Shown here: positions 5,388-42,182 of the stretch, piece after piece
How positions within the stretch are numbered: position 1 is the first letter of the stretch
How the letters are laid out: every line of letters starts with the position of its first letter
NCBI GenBank assembly: GCA_041649715.1
Contig: JBAZMP010000001.1
Span: 210,741-274,740 of the forward strand
DNA: 64,000 nt
Source of the DNA: Patescibacteria group bacterium
GTDB lineage: Bacteria; Patescibacteriota; Patescibacteriia; JAXHNJ01
Reading direction: 5' to 3'
Notes under the pieces: generated by a model
Seen by the model: only the letters and a program-made list of their open reading frames with translations
Databases searched by the model: none
What the model was told of the DNA's origin: nothing
Made by a program: the position numbers and the translations under genes

Positions 5388-6662
5388 ATGCCTAAAACAA
5401 AGATAATAATAATACTGACGGTCTTGGCCGGCTTTCTGCTGGCTCCCGCTTTGTTATGGGCGCAGACGGAAACGGCGAATCCGGAGATACCCCTGCAAAT
5501 AAAAATCCCTATTTTTTCCTCGCCTTGCGTCGATCAGGTAAAATACCCCGGCCGCAACTGCGTCAGTGATTTCGGCGATTACATCGGCCGGTTTTACAAA
5601 TATTTTTCCGGCGTCATCGGCATCCTGGCGGCGGCGATGATCGTTTTCGGCGGTTTCCAGTGGGTGACGGCTTCAGGCAACGCGAGCAGAATCCAAAACG
5701 CCAAAACGACGATCACCGGGGCGTTGGTAGGCGTGGTTTTAACCCTATGCGCTTATGTTTTTTTGAATACCATCAATCCGGACCTGGTCTCCTTGAGGTT
5801 CCCTAATTTATCCAATATAACGCGGCAGGTTTTGGGCACTAATTTCTGCGTGGATTTACCCACGCAGTCAGGCTTGCCGCTCGTGACCGATCCAGAACAT
5901 ATACCCTGTGGCCAATATAGGGGCTTTGATCAGTCTAAATCTACCACCACCTATACTCAAGATTATTGCTGCGGGAATTGGTGCGGCCCGGATGAAGACG
6001 GAAATTCGCAAGTCTGTGCGATAGCGTCAGGCGCAAGCGTTGACAAAAAATGTCCGGAAACTTGCCAAAGTCCCAAAAAAATCTGCGAGGATGCAGACGT
6101 CAGCCAATGTAAACAAGTTGACTCCAGTTTTGCCAGTCAGGGTATAAATAGTGTTTGTCGTCAGCTAGATAGAACATCATTTGTTCGCACGGGGGTAAGT
6201 GATACTTGTCGTTATGGCGAAATAGCAAAGAGTCCTTGCAGCACGGATGGGTCGTTAAAGAAGGTCGCCTGTAACTATTCCGGTATCAATAAAGATTTTG
6301 ATACGCCTTGCTGGAATGCTAGCGGGGCCCGCTATTTGGCAATAGGTGTCGCAAAAACGGTAGGTACTGTCACTTACCGTTATTGGTGCAATTCAACAGA
6401 TAGGATCGGGGTGGATACTGATTCATTTTGTTGTGCGCAAATAAGAAAGCAGGATATTAAATGTTTGAGTGAAAGTGAAGGCGCGGCGCAAAAAGATTAT
6501 GTCGAGGTCAGCTGTACGACCGCGATGGCTGACCTGGGGTATAGTCTCAGTTTTAATAGCATGCCCGGTAATTACGCCGACTCCTCCGTTTCTACTTGTG
6601 ATGGCGGCAGAAGGTGTTATATGCAGCTTAGTTTAAGGTACTCTACTTATACTTATAAATAA
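5388..6662 (+). CDS. Secreted protein with VirB2/TrbC-type T4SS pilin-like module and Cys-rich C-terminal domain
   Basis: 424 aa. Signal peptide. 70-aa module FYKYFSGVIGILAAAMIVFGGFQWVTASGNASRIQNAKTTITGALVGVVLTLCAYVFLNTINP (two hydrophobic helices around GN..AK, as in TrbC/VirB2 pilins). Then about 260 aa with more than 25 Cys. Confidence 0.6.
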   Translation: MPKTKIIIILTVLAGFLLAPALLWAQTETANPEIPLQIKIPIFSSPCVDQVKYPGRNCVSDFGDYIGRFYKYFSGVIGILAAAMIVFGGFQWVTASGNASRIQNAKTTITGALVGVVLTLCAYVFLNTINPDLVSLRFPNLSNITRQVLGTNFCVDLPTQSGLPLVTDPEHIPCGQYRGFDQSKSTTTYTQDYCCGNWCGPDEDGNSQVCAIASGASVDKKCPETCQSPKKICEDADVSQCKQVDSSFASQGINSVCRQLDRTSFVRTGVSDTCRYGEIAKSPCSTDGSLKKVACNYSGINKDFDTPCWNASGARYLAIGVAKTVGTVTYRYWCNSTDRIGVDTDSFCCAQIRKQDIKCLSESEGAAQKDYVEVSCTTAMADLGYSLSFNSMPGNYADSSVSTCDGGRRCYMQLSLRYSTYTYK

Positions 6663-6681
6663 TTCATTTTAATATAATCTT

Positions 6682-11261: not shown

Positions 11262-11501
11262 TTACCTTCCTCTCTCCTTTGTTTTTTTGCAGCCGGCACA
11301 GCCGCAGCATTTATCGGTATCGGGGAGGGCTTCGAGTCTATCGGGCTCGATCTGTTTTCTGCACACGATGCATGTGCCCGGTTTGATACCGAGTTCTCTG
11401 CGCTTGGCAATAACGGCGATTTTTTCCCGCCGCAATTGTTCATTGCGGGCCTCAAGGGCCAGATCTGCCGGCAACTGTCGGATCGTGTCTATCGTATCCA
11501 T
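11262..11501 (-). CDS. TraR/DksA-family C4 zinc-finger protein
   Basis: 79 aa. C-terminal CIVCRKQIEPDRLEALPDTDKCCGCAGC, as in DksA/TraR. Confidence 0.55.
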   Translation of the reverse strand: MDTIDTIRQLPADLALEARNEQLRREKIAVIAKRRELGIKPGTCIVCRKQIEPDRLEALPDTDKCCGCAGCKKTKERGR

Positions 11502-11930
11502 TGAGAGTTCCTCCTGCCAGGGAACAACGGTAACTGTAAGGGTTTGGGTGACCCTTCCTTAGAACAACAAAACGAAGCGTAAAACCTCACCTCCTTAACG
11601 CGTGAAAAGGTTTCAGGGACATTTCTTTTTTTGCAAAGAAATGATTTAAGATAAATGGAAATGGGGGTCAGGACAGACTTTGAGTGACAATGGTCAAAAC
11701 GCCGGCCGCAGAAAAGTTGTGGCAGAAGGAACTCCCGAAAGCCGAGAGCAACTAATCCGCAACCGCGTGACCTTGTTCCTACTCAAGACCTGGGTCTTGA
11801 GGCAGGGACCTCCCATATTGTCGGAGTCTGGCCGTTTTCCCCCCATTTTGCGAAGGTAATAGGATTGGGAATGAGCAAAAGTACTTTTTATTCTAAAGTA
11901 TATTTTAAACTATGTCAAGTCTTTGGCTTT

Positions 11931-14003
11931 TTATTCCCCGTGTATTTCTTTTTGCCACTCGCCAATTTTTTGTAAAAGGAGGGGAAATTTGGCTAGGGAC
12001 GGGTCATTTTCCATTAAAGATTTGGCCGCGGTTCGGGCTTGGGAAATTAGAGCAACGTCGGCGAGAGTTGCCATCCGGAAATCTGGCAATCCGGATTGCC
12101 TTGCCCCTATAAAATCGCCCGGGCCGCGCATTTTCAGATCGAATTCCGCCAGGCGAAAGCCGTCGCTGGTTTTTTCCAAAGCGGCCAGACGGTCGGCTGT
12201 TTTTAGGCTATCGCTTTCCGTGAAAAGAAAACAATATGATTGATGATGGCTTCTGCCGACCCGGCCCCGGAATTGATGAAGCTGGGCCAGACCGAATCTT
12301 TCCGCCCCTTCGATCATCATGACTGTGGCATTGGCAATATCAATACCCACCTCAATGACGGAAGTAGAAACGAGGATATTGATTTTATTGTTTTTAAAAT
12401 CAGCCATCACTTTTTCTTTCTCCTCCGTTTTTAGCTTGCCGTGAAGCAGGCCTATTTTCAGATCGGGAAAAACCTCATTGTTTAATTTCTCATATTCCTG
12501 TTTTACCGATTTAACCCCCAGTTTATCGGAAGATTCGATCAGGGGACAGATCACAAAGGTTTGCCGGCCGGCTTTGATTTGATTACGGATGAAATCATAG
12601 GCCTTAAAACGTTTGTCCGGGCTGACCACTTTGGTCAGGATTTTTCTTCGGCCGGCCGGCATTTCCGAGATTAAAGATAAATCCAGGTCGCCATAAACAG
12701 TTAGGGCGAGACTTCTGGGGATAGGAGTGGCGGTCATGGAGAGAAGATGGGGCATTAATTTATGGCCGGAAGAGGATTTTTCCCGCAAGGTTTTTCTTTG
12801 GGCCACGCCGAAACGGTGCTGTTCATCAACGACGACCAAAGAAAGATTTTTAAAGGTCACTTCTTCTTGGATCAAGGCGTGGGTGCCGATAACTAACTCG
12901 ATCTCACCGCTTTTTATCTTTTTTATGACGCCGGCGTGGTTTATTTTTCGGCCGCCGCTTTCTGTAAAATTACGGGTCAGCAAGGCGGTTTTTATCCGGA
13001 ACGGTTTTAAGAATTTTTTTATTTTTTCAAAATGCTGGTGGGCGAGTATTTCCGTTGGCGCCATGAAGGCGGTCTGAAAGCCGTTTCTGGCCGTATTCAG
13101 AATCGCCATAACCGCCACGATCGTCTTGCCGGAGCCGACATCCCCTTCCAATAACCTGTTCATAGGAGAGGATTTTTCCAGGTCCTTTAGAATTTCCCAG
13201 GCCGCTTTTTTCTGGCTTAGAGTCAGGGTAAAGGGGAGGGATTTAACAAATTCCCGGGTAACATTTTCCAGGAATTTAATGACCGGGGCCCGGGCTTTTT
13301 TCAGATAAATTTTATTCTGCCAGACTTGTGTTTGGATAAGAAAAAGCTCCTCAAATTTCAGGCGATTTTCCGCTTTTACCAATAAATCTTTGTTTTCCGG
13401 GAAATGGATCTGTTCTAATGCCTGGGCCAGCGGGATTAGCCGATAATTTTTTTGGATTTCGGCGGGCAGGAAATCCGGGATATTTTTTGCCGCATAGAGG
13501 ATCGATTTGATGAAAAACCGCATCTGCCTTTGGGTGATCCCGGCGGTCAGTGAATAGACGGGAACGATCCGGCCGGTATGCGTCTGCTCTTTTTTCACTT
13601 TTTCAAAAGAGGGGGAGATAAACTCGGGGGTGAGGTAATCCATCTCGACTTTGCCGGAAAGAATGATTTCGTCTCCGGGTTTCAATATTTTGGATAAGTA
13701 CGGCTGGTTGAACCAGACGATCTTGATTGAGCCGGTGTCGTCAGCGACCAGGCTTTCCGTGATGAACATTCTTCTCCGCCGGAAACTGCGGCGGCCGGTG
13801 ATCAGTTGCACCTTGCCTTTTATCGTGCAGATTTCGTGGGGTTTGACCTGATTGACTTTGACGATATGCGAAAAATCCTCGTAGCGGTAAGGAAAATAAA
13901 AAAGTAAGTCGTGGACAGTCTCGAGGTCTAAACTTTTAAGCTTGGCCGCAATCGCCGGTCCGACGCGCGGTATTTCCGAAATAGGAGAAAGATGGGTCAG
14001 CAT
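11931..14003 (-). CDS. recG: ATP-dependent DNA helicase RecG
   Basis: 690 aa. Wedge/OB N-terminal region. Helicase motifs GDVGSGKT, VVDEQHRFG, QFRGRVGR. RecG domain order. Confidence 0.9.
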   Translation of the reverse strand: MLTHLSPISEIPRVGPAIAAKLKSLDLETVHDLLFYFPYRYEDFSHIVKVNQVKPHEICTIKGKVQLITGRRSFRRRRMFITESLVADDTGSIKIVWFNQPYLSKILKPGDEIILSGKVEMDYLTPEFISPSFEKVKKEQTHTGRIVPVYSLTAGITQRQMRFFIKSILYAAKNIPDFLPAEIQKNYRLIPLAQALEQIHFPENKDLLVKAENRLKFEELFLIQTQVWQNKIYLKKARAPVIKFLENVTREFVKSLPFTLTLSQKKAAWEILKDLEKSSPMNRLLEGDVGSGKTIVAVMAILNTARNGFQTAFMAPTEILAHQHFEKIKKFLKPFRIKTALLTRNFTESGGRKINHAGVIKKIKSGEIELVIGTHALIQEEVTFKNLSLVVVDEQHRFGVAQRKTLREKSSSGHKLMPHLLSMTATPIPRSLALTVYGDLDLSLISEMPAGRRKILTKVVSPDKRFKAYDFIRNQIKAGRQTFVICPLIESSDKLGVKSVKQEYEKLNNEVFPDLKIGLLHGKLKTEEKEKVMADFKNNKINILVSTSVIEVGIDIANATVMMIEGAERFGLAQLHQFRGRVGRSHHQSYCFLFTESDSLKTADRLAALEKTSDGFRLAEFDLKMRGPGDFIGARQSGLPDFRMATLADVALISQARTAAKSLMENDPSLAKFPLLLQKIGEWQKEIHGE

Positions 14004-14035
14004 GCCTTAATTTTAGCACAAAAAATCAATAAAAT

Positions 14036-14065
14036 AGAGGGTGCTTCCCGAAAGAAGCACCCTCT
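14036..14065 (-). terminator. Rho-independent terminator (perfect 12-bp hairpin)
   Basis: AGAGGGTGCTTC-CCGAAA-GAAGCACCCTCT. On the minus strand it is followed by ATTTTATTGATTTTTT. Confidence 0.5.
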
Positions 14066-14114
14066 TCAACTTGACGCGCTTTTCAGCGTTTTGACCCTAG
14101 ATCATCCGTGATTT

Positions 14115-14237
14115 TCAGGTCGAGCTGTCCTCGGTATCCTTCTTGATGAGGAACGCGCCGTTCATCTCCTGGGTCTGGTTCGCCTTGGGCCTGCTTGCGT
14201 TGCCCTCACTGATCGCCTTGGAATTGAGTACAATCAT
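14115..14237 (-). CDS. Candidate small ORF (40 aa) with strong Shine-Dalgarno; below the ORF-track cut-off
   Basis: Minus strand reads GGGGAGGAttgcccatATG, then MIVLNSKAISEGNASRPKANQTQEMNGAFLIKKDTEDSST, then TGA. Sits in a GC-rich unit bounded by two terminators and preceded by an extended -10. Confidence 0.3.
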   Translation of the reverse strand: MIVLNSKAISEGNASRPKANQTQEMNGAFLIKKDTEDSST

Positions 14238-14411
14238 ATGGGCAATCCTCCCCGGGTTTCTGGTTGATGATTGCGGTCTCCCCACTGGTTCCTAAGATTA
14301 TCCCTAGTTCCAACCCTGGCTGGTATTTCACCCCCTTCCTTAGCGAGATTTCTCCTTTCCGGAATAATCTTAAGAAAAAAGCTGCTCAAGCAAAGGTGCA
14401 TAACTGATATA

Positions 14412-14420
14412 ATTATAACA
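14412..14420 (-). promoter_or_regulatory. Extended -10 promoter element TGTTATAAT
   Basis: Minus strand TGnTATAAT, immediately downstream of the tRNA-Arg terminator and about 165 nt upstream of the small ORF. Confidence 0.3.
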
Positions 14421-14440
14421 AATTTTGAAAATAAAAAAAA

Positions 14441-14461
14441 CTGGGGGCGATGGCCCCCCGG
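14441..14461 (-). terminator. Rho-independent terminator downstream of tRNA-Arg
   Basis: Minus strand GC hairpin GGGGGC/GCCCCC with a 4-nt loop, followed by TTTTTTTTATTTT. Confidence 0.5.
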
Positions 14462-14504
14462 TCTTTAAGAGTTTCCGCTTTAAAGCTTTATCTGCCGTCG
14501 CCTA

Positions 14505-14577
14505 TGCCCTCGAGGGGAATCGAACCCTTATTGCAGGATCCGCAATCCTGCGTCCTATCCATTGAACGACGAGGGCA
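14505..14577 (-). tRNA. tRNA-Arg (anticodon GCG as read)
   Basis: Minus strand GCCCTCG-TC-GTTCAATGGATAGGAC-G-CAGGA-TTGCGGA-TCCTG-CAAT-AAGGG-TTCGATT-CCCCT-CGAGGGC-A. 7-bp acceptor stem, TTCGATT T-loop, one A-C mismatch in the T-stem, no encoded CCA. Confidence 0.7.
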
Positions 14578-14669
14578 AAGGTAACAGCGGATAGATTTTT
14601 TTTAATTTCCCGGGTTATCTTTACGCTTATTTTACTAAAAAAATTTTGGCAATTTCAAAAAGCCTAAAC

Positions 14670-15173
14670 TTATATCTTCAGCACGCGGCTTAAGGCATCG
14701 GAAGTGGGCTCATCTTCTTTTTCCAGATCTTCATCCAGGTACTTTTTCAGGATCTCCCGGATTTTCAGGGGATTTTCTTTCTCTAAAGGGATGGGCAGGG
14801 TCGGCCGGACAGCGCTTTTGAAGTCAAAATAGATGTTTTTTACTAAAGGCGGCTGGTAGATAATGTAGAATTTTTTAAGATCGTGAAAAGGGTAAAAATT
14901 CCGGCTTAGTTCGATCCCGTCTTCCTTGATCCGGCATTCGATTAACGGGGGTGATTGTCGGTTTTGGAGGATAAAAATAATGCCGATAATGACGATAATG
15001 AGGATAAAAAGATAATTTTTCGCGAAGATCGACCAGATCAAGACCGCCGCGGTGAGGATAAGAGCGGTAAGATACCAGGCCTTTCCTCTTTTATGAACGA
15101 TAAATTCCGGGAAGATCCAGGCGGCCAAAGTTTTACCATGGTCGATTTTTTCTTTTTGATTGTTATCCGGCAT
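14670..15173 (-). CDS. Hypothetical membrane protein (two TM helices)
   Basis: 167 aa. RBS GGGAG. Hydrophobic segments LTALILTAAVLIWSIF and LFILIIVIIGIIFIL. Confidence 0.5.
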   Translation of the reverse strand: MPDNNQKEKIDHGKTLAAWIFPEFIVHKRGKAWYLTALILTAAVLIWSIFAKNYLFILIIVIIGIIFILQNRQSPPLIECRIKEDGIELSRNFYPFHDLKKFYIIYQPPLVKNIYFDFKSAVRPTLPIPLEKENPLKIREILKKYLDEDLEKEDEPTSDALSRVLKI

Positions 15174-15290
15174 AGATTTTTTCTCCCATGATTTATTTTA
15201 ATTTTTGAGTTGATGGCGGAGGCGGCAGCCCCGCCATGCGGCGGGGTCTTCGCTTACGCTTCTAAATTCTCACTATGATCGGCGTCAGAA

Positions 15291-15379
15291 CGGAGGGGGT
15301 GAGATTCGAACTCACGGAACCTTTTTACGGGCTCAACGGTTTTCAAGACCGTCCCATTCAACCGCTCTGGCACCCCTCC
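15291..15379 (-). tRNA. tRNA-Ser (anticodon TGA), type II with long variable arm
   Basis: Minus strand GGAGGGG-TG-CCA-GAGCGGTTGAA-TGG-G-ACGGT-CTTGAAA-ACCGT-long arm-GTGAG-TTCGAAT-CTCAC-CCCCTCC-G. Same pattern as E. coli tRNA-Ser(UGA). Confidence 0.85.
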
Positions 15380-15424
15380 GTTCTGACGCGGAAAACTCAA
15401 CGCAATTAATAAATTATTAAAGTT

Positions 15425-15520
15425 TTTCTTCCTTCGGAAGATCACCCGTAGGGTGACAAGACTGTCCGACTTGTCCCGTCGAATGACGGGATTAAACCGC
15501 TCTCGCACGCCTCCATGAAA
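15425..15520 (-). other. tRNA-like fragment / multi-hairpin element between the two tRNA-Ser genes
   Basis: Minus strand begins GGAGGCGTGCGAGAGCGGTTTAAT (cf. tRNA-Ser 5' half GGAGGGGTGCCAGAGCGGTTGAAT) but has no matching 3' acceptor strand. It continues with four perfect hairpins: CCCGTC/GACGGG, GACAAG/CTTGTC, CACCC/GGGTG, TCTTCC/GGAAGA. Confidence 0.3.
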
Positions 15521-15609
15521 CGGAGAGTACAGGATTCGAACCTGTGCGGGACTTTTTAGATCCCCGCGGTTTAGCAAACCGCTGCCTTAAGCCACTCGGC
15601 CAACTCTCC
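15521..15609 (-). tRNA. tRNA-Ser (anticodon GCT), type II
   Basis: Minus strand GGAGAGT-TG-GCC-GAGTGGCTTAA-GGC-A-GCGGT-TTGCTAA-ACCGC-long arm-ACAGG-TTCGAAT-CCTGT-ACTCTCC-G. Confidence 0.85.
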
Positions 15610-15636
15610 AGAAATTATATGAATTGATTGAGTTAT

Positions 15637-39460: not shown

Positions 39461-39567
39461 AATATCAAAATAACATTTAAAATTAGCCATTATTATGGTT
39501 ATCAGCCCAGTCGATTGCTGGTAACTCTCGTAAATGGCGCAAAGAACTTAAGGAAGGAGGTGAAAAA

Positions 39568-40095
39568 ATGAAAAATAAAAAAAGAGGCTTCACTTTGATT
39601 GAACTATTGGTCGTTATCGCCATTATCGGTATTTTGTCAGCCATCGGCTTGGTCGCCTTAAACGGCGCCCGGGAAAAGGCCAGAGACGCCCAGAGGCGGT
39701 CAGATATCGCCCAAACGAGGACCGCTCTGACTTTGTATTTTGACGACAATAGTTCAAAATATCCTGTTACCGTAGCTGGCTCCGGCACTCCCGATGTATC
39801 AGCTTATGGTACTACGGCGGCAACAGCCCTTGGAGTATGGGCATCAGGAGGTGCTTTAGTGACTGGTTATCTGGCTCAAGAGTTAAAAGCCCCCGGCTCT
39901 GAATTAGACCATGCCTATAAGTATGACAGTGCTTCTACTGCTCGGCTTGAATATTATTTATATACCGATTTGGAGGCAGGGGTTGGTACCCATGTTTATG
40001 CCATAAATGAGGACGGAACCGTCACGGATTACGCGGACAACATGACGACTGAACCTAATTGCGCGGTTGGCGCCTGCACCGCACCGGCGGCGTAA
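39568..40095 (+). CDS. pilA: Type IV major pilin PilA
   Basis: 175 aa. Class III signal [23 protein letters not shown]. Strong SD. Confidence 0.8.
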
Positions 40096-40154: not shown

Positions 40155-40793
40155 TTGTTTGTGTCTAACAAATGCTATAATTATCTTATGTGGCTGAAAA
40201 CTTTCTATTTTTTTGATGCGCGTTTTTTACTGGTCGTTTTTTGCCTGCTCGGTCTTTGGTTTTTTTGGCAGTACGTAAAATATAAGGAAATAAAAAGACA
40301 GGCCGTCATTTTCGCTTTTTTGATTTTTTTGGTTCTTTTTACTCTGTCGATTTTTTTGCCCGCCTGGCAAACCTACAAAAGTTTTGCGGCCAGCGACTTA
40401 AACCGGTATTACCTGCCTCCTTATTCAAATTATTATTATCAGATTCTGCAGCGCCAGCTGACCAATTATTTTTCCCATATCCTGGCCGCCCTGATCGCAG
40501 GCTTAATTTTTTGGCTGGTCAAGCGTTTGACCCATGGCCTGGTCATTGATCAGTCGGATGTCGGCCTGCTGGCCTTCGGCGCGCTAGTCGCCGGCTGGCC
40601 GAATCTGCTCATTTTTTTCGGCTTGGTGTTTCTTTTGGTCATTATCACCGGCCTTGTCCAGCTGGCTGTGATCAAAGAAAGATCTAACGCGCGTTTCATC
40701 ATCACCCCCTATCTGCCCGTCGCTTTGATTCTTACTTTATTTGTCGGCAACCATCTTTCTCTCTTGATCCATCTGGAAAAAATTCGATTTTAA
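40155..40793 (+). CDS. Hypothetical polytopic membrane protein
   Basis: 212 aa. At least five hydrophobic helices. Confidence 0.45.
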   Translation: MFVSNKCYNYLMWLKTFYFFDARFLLVVFCLLGLWFFWQYVKYKEIKRQAVIFAFLIFLVLFTLSIFLPAWQTYKSFAASDLNRYYLPPYSNYYYQILQRQLTNYFSHILAALIAGLIFWLVKRLTHGLVIDQSDVGLLAFGALVAGWPNLLIFFGLVFLLVIITGLVQLAVIKERSNARFIITPYLPVALILTLFVGNHLSLLIHLEKIRF

Positions 40794-41378: not shown

Positions 41379-42182
41379 GTGAGAATTTGTTATAATAAAC
41401 TCATCATGGAAACCATTTTTTCTTATATTCTAGTGGCTGTATTTGGCCTTATTATCGCCAGTTTCCTTAATGTCGTGATCTACCGCCTGCATGAGAAGAA
41501 ATCATTTATTAAGGGCCATTCTTATTGCCCCAAATGCCAGCACGCCCTGAAAGCGGCTGATCTGGTTCCCATTTTCAGCTTTATCCGGCTTAAGGGGCGC
41601 TGTCGCTATTGCCGTCAAAAAATCTCCTGGCAGTATCCACTGGGCGAAGCGCTGTTGGCCCTGGCCTTTTGCCTCTTGTTTTTTTACTTTAACTGGTCGT
41701 GGTCGTTCGTATTTTATCTGATCGATACCTGCTTTTTATTCATGATTTTCCTCTATGATCTTAAATACTTTCTTATCTTGGACCAGGTTAGCCTGCCGGC
41801 CATCGTTTGCGCTCTGATTTTCAGCATTATTATGGAAATGCCCCTCTTGGATCTTTTGCTTGGCGGTCTGATCGGCGGCGTTTTTTTCCTCGCCCAATAC
41901 GTGATTTCCCGCGGCCACTGGATCGGCGGGGGCGATATCCGTTTAGGCGTGCTGATGGGTTTTATTTTGGGCTGGGAGAAATTTTTAGTCGCTTTGTTCC
42001 TCGCCTATATCGCCGGTTCCCTTGTTTCACTTATTTTGATTATCGTGAAAAGAAGAAGCCTAAAAAGCCAGCTGGCCTTCGCGCCTTTTTTAGTGGCCAG
42101 TACCTTTATCACCCTTCTTTACGGCCAGCGGATTTTAGACTGGTATCTGGCGGGCAATTTAGTTAATTGGCTTCTTTATTAA
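41379..42182 (+). CDS. pilD: Prepilin peptidase PilD (A24 family)
   Basis: 267 aa. Tetracysteine CPKC...CRYC. Polytopic. Catalytic Asp-containing motifs. Confidence 0.85.
   Translation: MRICYNKLIMETIFSYILVAVFGLIIASFLNVVIYRLHEKKSFIKGHSYCPKCQHALKAADLVPIFSFIRLKGRCRYCRQKISWQYPLGEALLALAFCLLFFYFNWSWSFVFYLIDTCFLFMIFLYDLKYFLILDQVSLPAIVCALIFSIIMEMPLLDLLLGGLIGGVFFLAQYVISRGHWIGGGDIRLGVLMGFILGWEKFLVALFLAYIAGSLVSLILIIVKRRSLKSQLAFAPFLVASTFITLLYGQRILDWYLAGNLVNWLLY

Follow-up and report, generated by a model that had tools for sequence, protein, structure and literature searches.

Purine-rich sequences that resemble a Shine–Dalgarno (SD) motif do not always serve to initiate translation. In the STAB-SD system, a non-initiating SD-like sequence within the 5′ untranslated region (UTR) binds 16S rRNA and blocks RNase J1 (PMC4113751), and polypurine stabilisers are credited to Hue et al. 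(1995) and Agaisse and Lereclus (1996), as cited in PMC3997798. The hbs mRNA of Bacillus subtilis combines a structured 5′ UTR with a strong SD; ribosomes bound there shield the RNA from 5′–3′ decay, and the structure of the UTR couples stability to translation (PMC5737220). Dual-function small RNAs (sRNAs), such as SR1/SR1P, constitute another known kind of transcript (PMC3526287, PMC12310071), with SR1P described as highly conserved in PMC3526287 and PMC5013986. The subject of the present work is a self-contained transcription unit of ~375 nt with a small open reading frame (ORF), located on the minus strand of a 64-kb stretch of a Patescibacteria (Candidate Phyla Radiation, CPR) genome; this whole stretch is termed the window. 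The unit is real and recurs, from promoter to terminator, in related lineages.

Both the STAB-SD of B. thuringiensis cry3A and the SP82 stabiliser of B. subtilis resemble the unit in possessing non-initiating purines, complementary to the anti-SD, within the 5′ UTR and far upstream of the start codon. The SP82 polypurine stabiliser is, in addition, associated with a double-stranded processing site. Motif 1 of the leader described here, GGAAAGGAG, is nearly the canonical GAAAGGAGG, which we take to be the STAB-SD sequence. The unit differs in that two motifs are present, that they lie within a loop closed by a 15–16-bp stem, with Motif 1 at 25–45 nt from the predicted 5′ end, and that the host is a CPR bacterium; the likeness is of the "works like" kind, drawn from sequence. 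With SR1/SR1P the unit shares the format of an independent, terminator-bounded RNA of a few hundred nt, with conserved structure and a (here predicted) ORF of 30–45 codons. SgrS/SgrT and RNAIII/hld are further dual-function sRNAs that encode small proteins. Unlike SR1P, however, the peptide encoded here diverges almost neutrally, and there is no sequence or family relationship between the two. The hbs mRNA encodes a small, abundant protein and likewise has a structured 5′ UTR and a strong SD, albeit that its protecting SD is a functional ribosome-binding site (RBS), whereas the orphan sites of this unit lie ~100 nt upstream of the SD of the ORF.

The strongest constraint on the unit does not fall on the ORF but sits on a 5′ stem-loop that displays the orphan SD look-alikes. 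We give a probability of about one half to the RNA being the mRNA of a small protein, possibly a dual-function sRNA, with a leader that acts like a STAB-SD or polypurine 5′ stabiliser. As these stabilisers are the closest functional precedent, 30S docking is proposed as the mechanism of the leader. An extended −10 promoter and an intrinsic terminator would delimit a structured RNA of ~340–380 nt, in which a long 5′ stem presents a purine loop containing one or two SD look-alikes that lack a start codon. These orphan motifs would dock the 3′ end of 16S rRNA—and with it the 30S subunit—near the 5′ end of the transcript; docking, together with the 5′ stem and the 3′ hairpins, would then shield the transcript from 5′-end-dependent decay and/or keep a ribosome on standby for the structured RBS downstream. 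Transcription start, translation, 30S docking and stabilisation are all steps that we infer.

Distribution of the unit and its conserved 5′ domain

Besides the window copy, homologous units with a promoter and terminator of their own are found in five lineages, all from a single narrow Patescibacteria clade; nhmmer recovered them at E=2e-19 to 4e-11 with the single window sequence and at values down to 1e-95 with a profile. Subgroup A comprises the window copy, L120, and L001, and subgroup B comprises L121, L082, and L083. The promoter, TGnTATAAT, is present in all six homologs (as TGTTATAAT, TGCTATAAT, or TGATATAAT), as is an intrinsic terminator, the stem sequences of which differ and which faces a convergent gene in the L120-type genome. 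In L001 the upstream neighbour is a protein gene, and in the other five lineages it is a tRNA-Arg gene; downstream lies recG in four of the six, and a convergent cysK-like gene in the L120 type. Since the flanking genes vary while each copy keeps its own promoter and terminator, the unit is autonomous and not a recG leader and, judged by its sequence context, is a gene limited to one narrow Patescibacteria clade.

Loci anchored on RecG in 80 species yielded one homolog, L001 (80% RecG identity; nhmmer E=2e-19), and L082 and L083 came from RecG relatives at 83% and 80% identity, respectively, in Logan assemblies. L120 (with near-identical copies L148–L151) and L121/L122 were found via a 167-aa membrane protein encoded upstream. 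RecG relatives at ≤67% identity either lack the unit or leave no room for it. No further copies or paralogs were detected with nhmmer profiles and a covariance model (R1) across 92 sources, namely the window and 737 kb of sequence around recG in CPR genomes. When metagenomes at large were scanned for the pattern of the 5′ domain (GGAAAGG..RGGRGGTGA..GGATAATC), there were 27 matches, mostly inside coding sequence, all of them chance matches without the 5′ strand of the closing stem (P1), and a scan of viral contigs gave 25 chance matches without the 3′ strand of P1. A search with an N-terminal RecG fragment for truncated contigs yielded distant relatives only.

The unit matches no Rfam, Pfam, NCBIfam, or PHROG family, though its ORF has already been annotated as hypothetical. 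Rfam 15, applied to the whole window at gathering thresholds, reported four tRNAs only, and at E≤10 the region 13950–14520 gave only partial, terminator-like matches that fell well short of threshold, such as BSnc120 (29 versus 114 bits). The peptides had no match at E≤10 in Pfam, NCBIfam, or PHROGs, bar one PHROG match of a single peptide at E=0.11, and a search of the window peptide against 1.84 billion protein representatives returned only itself. ARAGORN found no transfer-messenger RNA (tmRNA), and no tRNA-like end is present. A resemblance to RNase P, signal recognition particle RNA, tmRNA, and 6S RNA was rejected, with no covariance-model match for any of them.

Among the segments of the unit, the 5′ domain alone is equally conserved within and between subgroups (identity 0.70 in both cases); the corresponding values are 0.61 and 0.50 for the linker, 0.66 and 0.55 for the ORF, and 0.69 and 0.52 for the 3′ UTR. 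The linker values are judged to be little above chance, a judgement made with no random baseline computed. P1, of 15–16 bp, pairs in all six homologs with 0–1 mismatches, and its changes are G-U/A-U switches plus one paired indel. The stem is part of the minimum-energy fold of all six isolated domains, with a pairing probability of 0.99–1.0 in five of the full-length RNAs and 0.55 in that of the window, and the covariance model of the 5′ domain scores 68–98 bits. The enclosed loop of ~55–65 nt is purine-rich, and its interior fold is inconsistent among the six homologs; a 3-bp hairpin that follows GGAAAGG shows compensatory changes by eye, in six sequences that are too few for statistics.

Both loop motifs can be matched to the anti-SD at the 3′ terminus of 16S rRNA, since the published anti-SD CCUCCUUUC (PMC10783764), which was used for the comparison, has GAAAGGAGG as its complete complement. 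The core of Motif 1, GGAAAGG, is invariant in the six homologs and has a mean predicted unpaired probability of 0.59 versus a transcript mean of 0.40; GAAAGGAG occurs once in the 64-kb window, at this motif. The distance between Motif 1 and the start that the −10 box predicts is 25–26 nt in four homologs and 45 nt in the other two. Motif 2, AAGGRGGUGA, is present in five of the six. As DNA (AAGGRGGTGA), it occurs three times in the window versus 0.15 expected: in the RBS of a type IV pilin-like gene, in the unit, and in another long leader. No conserved start codon stands within 14 nt downstream of either motif in the six homologs, and a sporadic UUG or AUG follows in L120, L121, and L082 only.

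The small ORF and constraint on the RNA

Evidence for translation of the ORF comes from its start, its frame, and its composition. An invariant UAUG is preceded, 8–11 nt upstream in all six homologs, by an SD-like purine motif (GGAGG in subgroup A, AAAGGCGG in subgroup B). In every homolog, a frame at the corresponding position stays open for 32–40 codons, with a composition-only probability of being open of 0.16–0.33 each, and the other two frames of the region contain 0–3 stops. In the window, the GC content by codon position is 0.44/0.41/0.85 (p=8e-5), and across the six ORFs the content at third positions (GC3) is 0.74–0.85 versus 0.36–0.55 at positions one and two, in the same frame in both subgroups. 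This period-3 composition has per-sequence p values of 8e-5 to 0.05 and is found in neither UTR. Third-position A is ≤0.10 in five of the ORFs and 0.21 in that of L121. Gap runs divisible by three amount to 13 of 18 within the ORF versus 11 of 49 outside it (Fisher p=3.5e-4), as counted in a MAFFT alignment that is not codon-aware and in which runs are common to several sequences, such that the counts are not independent. The ORF is also present in GenBank (MFA5069853.1, "hypothetical protein WC528_01075", from a Patescibacteria metagenome-assembled genome), was called by the NCBI and JGI pipelines in two lineages, and shares its frame with a GTG-extended 56-aa form in the ORF list of the window. 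It most likely encodes a hydrophilic peptide of 32–40 residues, the frame of which appears to be maintained while the amino-acid sequence is weakly constrained.

Constraint at the RNA level is visible in and after the ORF as well. Folded singly, the window RNA and those of L120 and L001 each give the same predicted three-way junction (stems S1 to S3 in Table 1), as does their alignment, and the outer pair of S2 is U-A, A-U, and C-G across these three sequences. The 3′ region of subgroup B differs, with a covarying hairpin, GAUCA...UGAUC, ahead of the terminator. Relative to shuffled sequences, each of the six RNAs is predicted to fold more stably (z from −1.4 to −4.4). In the 3′ module, the inner hairpin differs between two copies from different samples, L148 (620–640) and L120 (1385–1405), that are otherwise identical; a 3-nt block, UAC to GGA, alters its predicted form.

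The anatomy of the unit in the window (Table 1) largely bears out the original prediction of a compact, terminator-bounded transcription unit, with promoter and terminator kept in all six homologs. On reading the minus strand, the extended −10 that it placed just past the tRNA-Arg terminator is present, as are the strong SD and the 40-codon ORF; ORF and SD are found in every orthologous copy, and no Rfam hit, whether at gathering thresholds or at E≤10, explains the region. Two of its details needed amending. The hairpin of the terminator had been given as a perfect 12 bp and in fact has 13 pairs, of which seven are G-C, around a 4-nt loop. The leader, estimated at ~165 nt, is ~168 nt long when counted from the predicted start, but it is purine-rich rather than GC-rich (~48% GC versus 46.6% for the window). 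No −35 element is recognisable upstream of TGTTATAAT in the window sequence, and the 5′ tail carries an additional insertion of ~20 nt in the window and in L121.

Table 1. Features of the unit and of its immediate surroundings in the window
Feature	Position	Strand	Remarks
Extended −10 promoter TGTTATAAT	14420..14412	−	Read directly in the sequence; upstream A/T-rich tract
Predicted transcription start	~14405	−	Placed from the −10 spacing (7 nt past the −10 box)
5′ tail with pyrimidine tract CCUUU...CUUUUUU	14405..14377	−	CCUU(U) then U/C run in 6/6 homologs
Conserved 5′ domain, stem P1 around purine-rich loop	14376..14289	−	
P1 strands	5′ 14376..14361, 3′ 14304..14289	−	16 bp; ~56-nt loop enclosed
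Motif 1 GGAAAGGAG, SD look-alike	14360..14352	−	
Motif 2 AAGGGGGUGA, second orphan SD look-alike	14337..14328	−	Consensus AAGGRGGUGA
Linker, 5′ domain to RBS	14288..14254	−	Poorly conserved
SD GGGGAGGA of the small ORF	14253..14246	−	GGAGG core ends 9 nt before ATG
Small ORF, 40 codons + TGA stop	14237..14115	−	Predicted peptide MIVLNSKAISEGNASRPKANQTQEMNGAFLIKKDTEDSST
3′ three-way-junction module	14159..14073	−	Subgroup A only; covers last ~14 codons of the ORF
S1	GGCGCG 14159..14154 with CGCGUC 14078..14073	−	
S2	UCCUC 14152..14148 with GAGGA 14132..14128	−	5 bp
S3		−	Longer hairpin containing the stop codon
Intrinsic terminator	Hairpin 14065..14036, tail to 14020	−	T-rich tail
tRNA-Arg(GCG) gene	14504–14577	−	Upstream neighbour of the unit
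tRNA-Arg terminator	14458..14443 + T run	−	TGTTATAAT lies just downstream of it
recG	14003..11931	−	Directly downstream; a separate TGTGCTAAAAT box stands within a few nt of its start codon

A second, 55-aa ORF (14234–14401, minus strand) begins near the predicted 5′ end and covers the entire 5′ domain, and its stop overlaps the start of the 40-aa ORF (AUGA). It is probably fortuitous, since it is absent from all five other homologs; coupling of the two ORFs through the AUGA overlap was rejected, as the arrangement is found in the window alone.

Weighing the explanations

Several observations weigh against reading the RNA as the mRNA of a small protein with a stabilising leader. The comparison involves only six distinct sequences in two tight subgroups. 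The ratio of nonsynonymous to synonymous substitution rates (dN/dS) is about 1 (0.55–1.5), substitutions are spread evenly over codon positions, and the ORF is conserved no better than the UTRs. The bases of the covarying outer pair of S2 are second codon positions, and therefore the peptide changes (F/N/P and D/V/G) as the pair is kept. Codon usage is atypical, with 22 AAG to 3 AAA versus 32% AAG in the genes of the window, and a GC3 of ~0.8 versus 0.55 ± 0.05 in those genes. The pilin gene, which is likely to be highly expressed, does not share this bias (GC3 0.47), and high GC3 was rejected as a mark of high expression on that account; an overlapping constraint from RNA structure is one possibility for the cause of the GC3 and AAG bias. 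The predicted accessibility of the RBS, at 0.27–0.51, is patternless and not especially open. With regard to the leader, Motif 2 is missing in L121, which has AAAGGACCAG in its place, and Motif 1 lies 25–45 nt from the predicted start within a stem-closed loop, unlike the 5′-terminal STAB-SD.

Some of these same features would be expected if the structured RNA were itself the product, acting as a dual-function or purely regulatory trans-acting sRNA in which the ORF is secondary or incidental. This proposal, which develops a suggestion of the original prediction and stays live as a rival or a co-function, is possible although doubtful. Constraint on the RNA is visible, its best-conserved part is the 5′ domain, and dN/dS is about 1; the three-way junction of subgroup A retains a pair (U-A/A-U/C-G) at the expense of residues, subgroup B has its covarying hairpin before the terminator, all six RNAs outfold their shuffles, and SR1/SR1P provides a precedent for dual-function sRNAs (PMC3526287, PMC12310071). 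The period-3 composition and the in-frame gaps are nevertheless hard to explain without translation, and no RNA chaperone or partner is known. In one variant, the 5′ pyrimidine tract or the purine loop would pair with other RNAs, for example the SD-bearing pilin mRNA: the 5′ CU tract and the pilin RBS are predicted to form a duplex of ~13 bp at −17.3 kcal/mol, ranking 4 of 105 candidate starts, and the pilin RBS has a 17-nt match to the loop motif of L120. At ~1.9 standard deviations from the mean of the 64-kb sample, however, this target prediction is not distinctive, and the pairing runs partly through the self-complementary CUUAAG of the same strand that forms P1; the pilin RBS was rejected as a target, its rank not being significant. 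A related reading, which we regard as decidedly unlikely, casts the RNA as an RBS mimic or regulator in an SD-poor CPR bacterium that tunes pilin expression while also encoding a disposable peptide. The loop UAAGGAAGGRGGUGAAA may titrate 30S subunits or an RBS-binding factor, or the 5′ CU tract may pair with the few SD-bearing mRNAs.

The 5′ domain could also be the aptamer of a riboswitch, as the original prediction had suggested for the leader, or of some other leader that senses a ligand or protein and governs translation of the ORF. The position of a conserved ~90-nt domain, with its P1-like closing stem, ahead of an SD and ORF fits such an arrangement. In the minimum-energy fold of the window RNA and in the subgroup A consensus, the P1 5′ strand pairs alternatively with the internal purine motif. 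On balance, a riboswitch is unlikely: even with the cut-off relaxed to E≤10 there is no Rfam match, firm conservation is limited to one long stem whereas the interior lacks a consistent predicted fold in the six sequences (and much of it is replaced in L121), neither the alternative pairing nor any SD-sequestering helix is conserved in subgroup B, and the downstream gene offers no clue to a ligand. A leader-peptide attenuator that regulates read-through into recG is very improbable, even though recG in four of the six lineages is immediately preceded by a short ORF, hairpins, and a terminator. The varying downstream gene largely refutes it, the next gene being convergent in the L120-type genome; moreover, recG has its own conserved TGTGCTAAAAT promoter by its ATG, 110–160 nt of extra sequence separate it from the unit in L001, L082, and L083, RecG relatives at ≤67% identity are without the unit, and the peptides, by our own reading of the sequences, contain no runs of a regulatory codon.

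Equally improbable are a type I toxin–antitoxin pair, a tmRNA-like RNA, and a CsrB-like sponge. A hydrophobic ORF of 50 aa lies antisense to the unit on the plus strand of the window, but ORFs on the reverse strand keep neither frame nor length nor start, and the sense peptides are hydrophilic, and the toxin–antitoxin candidate was rejected. The subgroup B peptides end in ...ANARAA; ARAGORN and Rfam find no tmRNA, and a tRNA-like end is lacking. GGA triplets number 14 versus 8.5 expected in the window RNA, but three of the RNAs show no such enrichment and the sequences examined encode no CsrA; a CsrB-like sponge was likewise rejected. The earlier suggestion of a secreted product also found no support: the peptides are hydrophilic and, by eye and with no predictor run, lack a hydrophobic segment resembling a signal peptide.

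Gene neighbourhood, genome setting and significance

Around the unit, the window region 14504–15610 (minus strand) holds, in order, tRNA-Ser(GCU), tRNA-Ser(UGA), the 167-aa membrane protein, and tRNA-Arg(GCG). This block is kept upstream of the unit or of recG in L001, L083, L086, and L121, and it reaches relatives without the unit; the 167-aa protein weakly matches DUF5673 in relatives. Between the unit terminator and the recG promoter, an extra segment of 110–150 nt is present in L001 (3840–3985), L082 (1240–1380), and L083 (2340–2480) and missing from the window. It contains two or three G+C-rich hairpins, for example GGCGAAGCUUUCUAGCUUCGCC and GCCGAGACUAGAAAGUCUCGGC. The TGTGCTAAAAT box of recG, a few nt from the ATG, is conserved in the window, L001, L082, and L083.

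An SD-like motif (−20..−5) precedes only 5 of the 44 long ORFs in the window, and many window ORFs instead have a TATAAT-like hexamer 5–15 nt before the ATG (e.g., 6660–6681, 40165–40187, 41383–41405, and the recG start at 14003). The genome thus looks, from its sequence, poor in SDs, with many short-leader or leaderless mRNAs. One of the few strong RBSs (CUUAAGGAAGGAGGUGAAAAAAUG, 39544–39570) belongs to the type IV pilin-like gene (39568–40095, plus strand; N_methyl motif); this RBS has a 17-nt match, UAAGGAAGGAGGUGAAA, to the loop of L120 and is 1 nt off the loop of the window. A non-coding stretch of ~400 nt (11510–11930, minus strand) runs from the recG stop to an ORF of DksA/TraR zinc-finger type (ATG at 11501), with a TTGACA-17-TAGAAT promoter near 11915–11887 and an orphan AAGGAGGTGA at 11596–11587. 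It has no Rfam match at E≤1, is weakly conserved (in L082 and L001), and is a candidate for a second long leader or non-coding RNA.

The narrow distribution of the unit, in six lineages of one clade, limits its general importance, and, should the proposed mechanism be false, the unit would be one more lineage-specific hypothetical small gene. To our knowledge, the regulatory RNAs and small proteins of CPR/Patescibacteria are almost uncharted, and a literature search on them found nothing relevant. The unit provides a clean, testable case: a structured RNA with a small ORF and a strong promoter, in which two orphan SD look-alikes are the best-conserved feature, standing in a genome that largely avoids SD-led initiation. 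Tuning of the pilin, if true, would bear on the episymbiotic lifestyle, to which the pilin is central. If the stabiliser or standby mechanism proves true, control of the STAB-SD type would reach beyond the Firmicutes, and the unit would offer a way into how ultra-small bacteria degrade mRNA and initiate translation.

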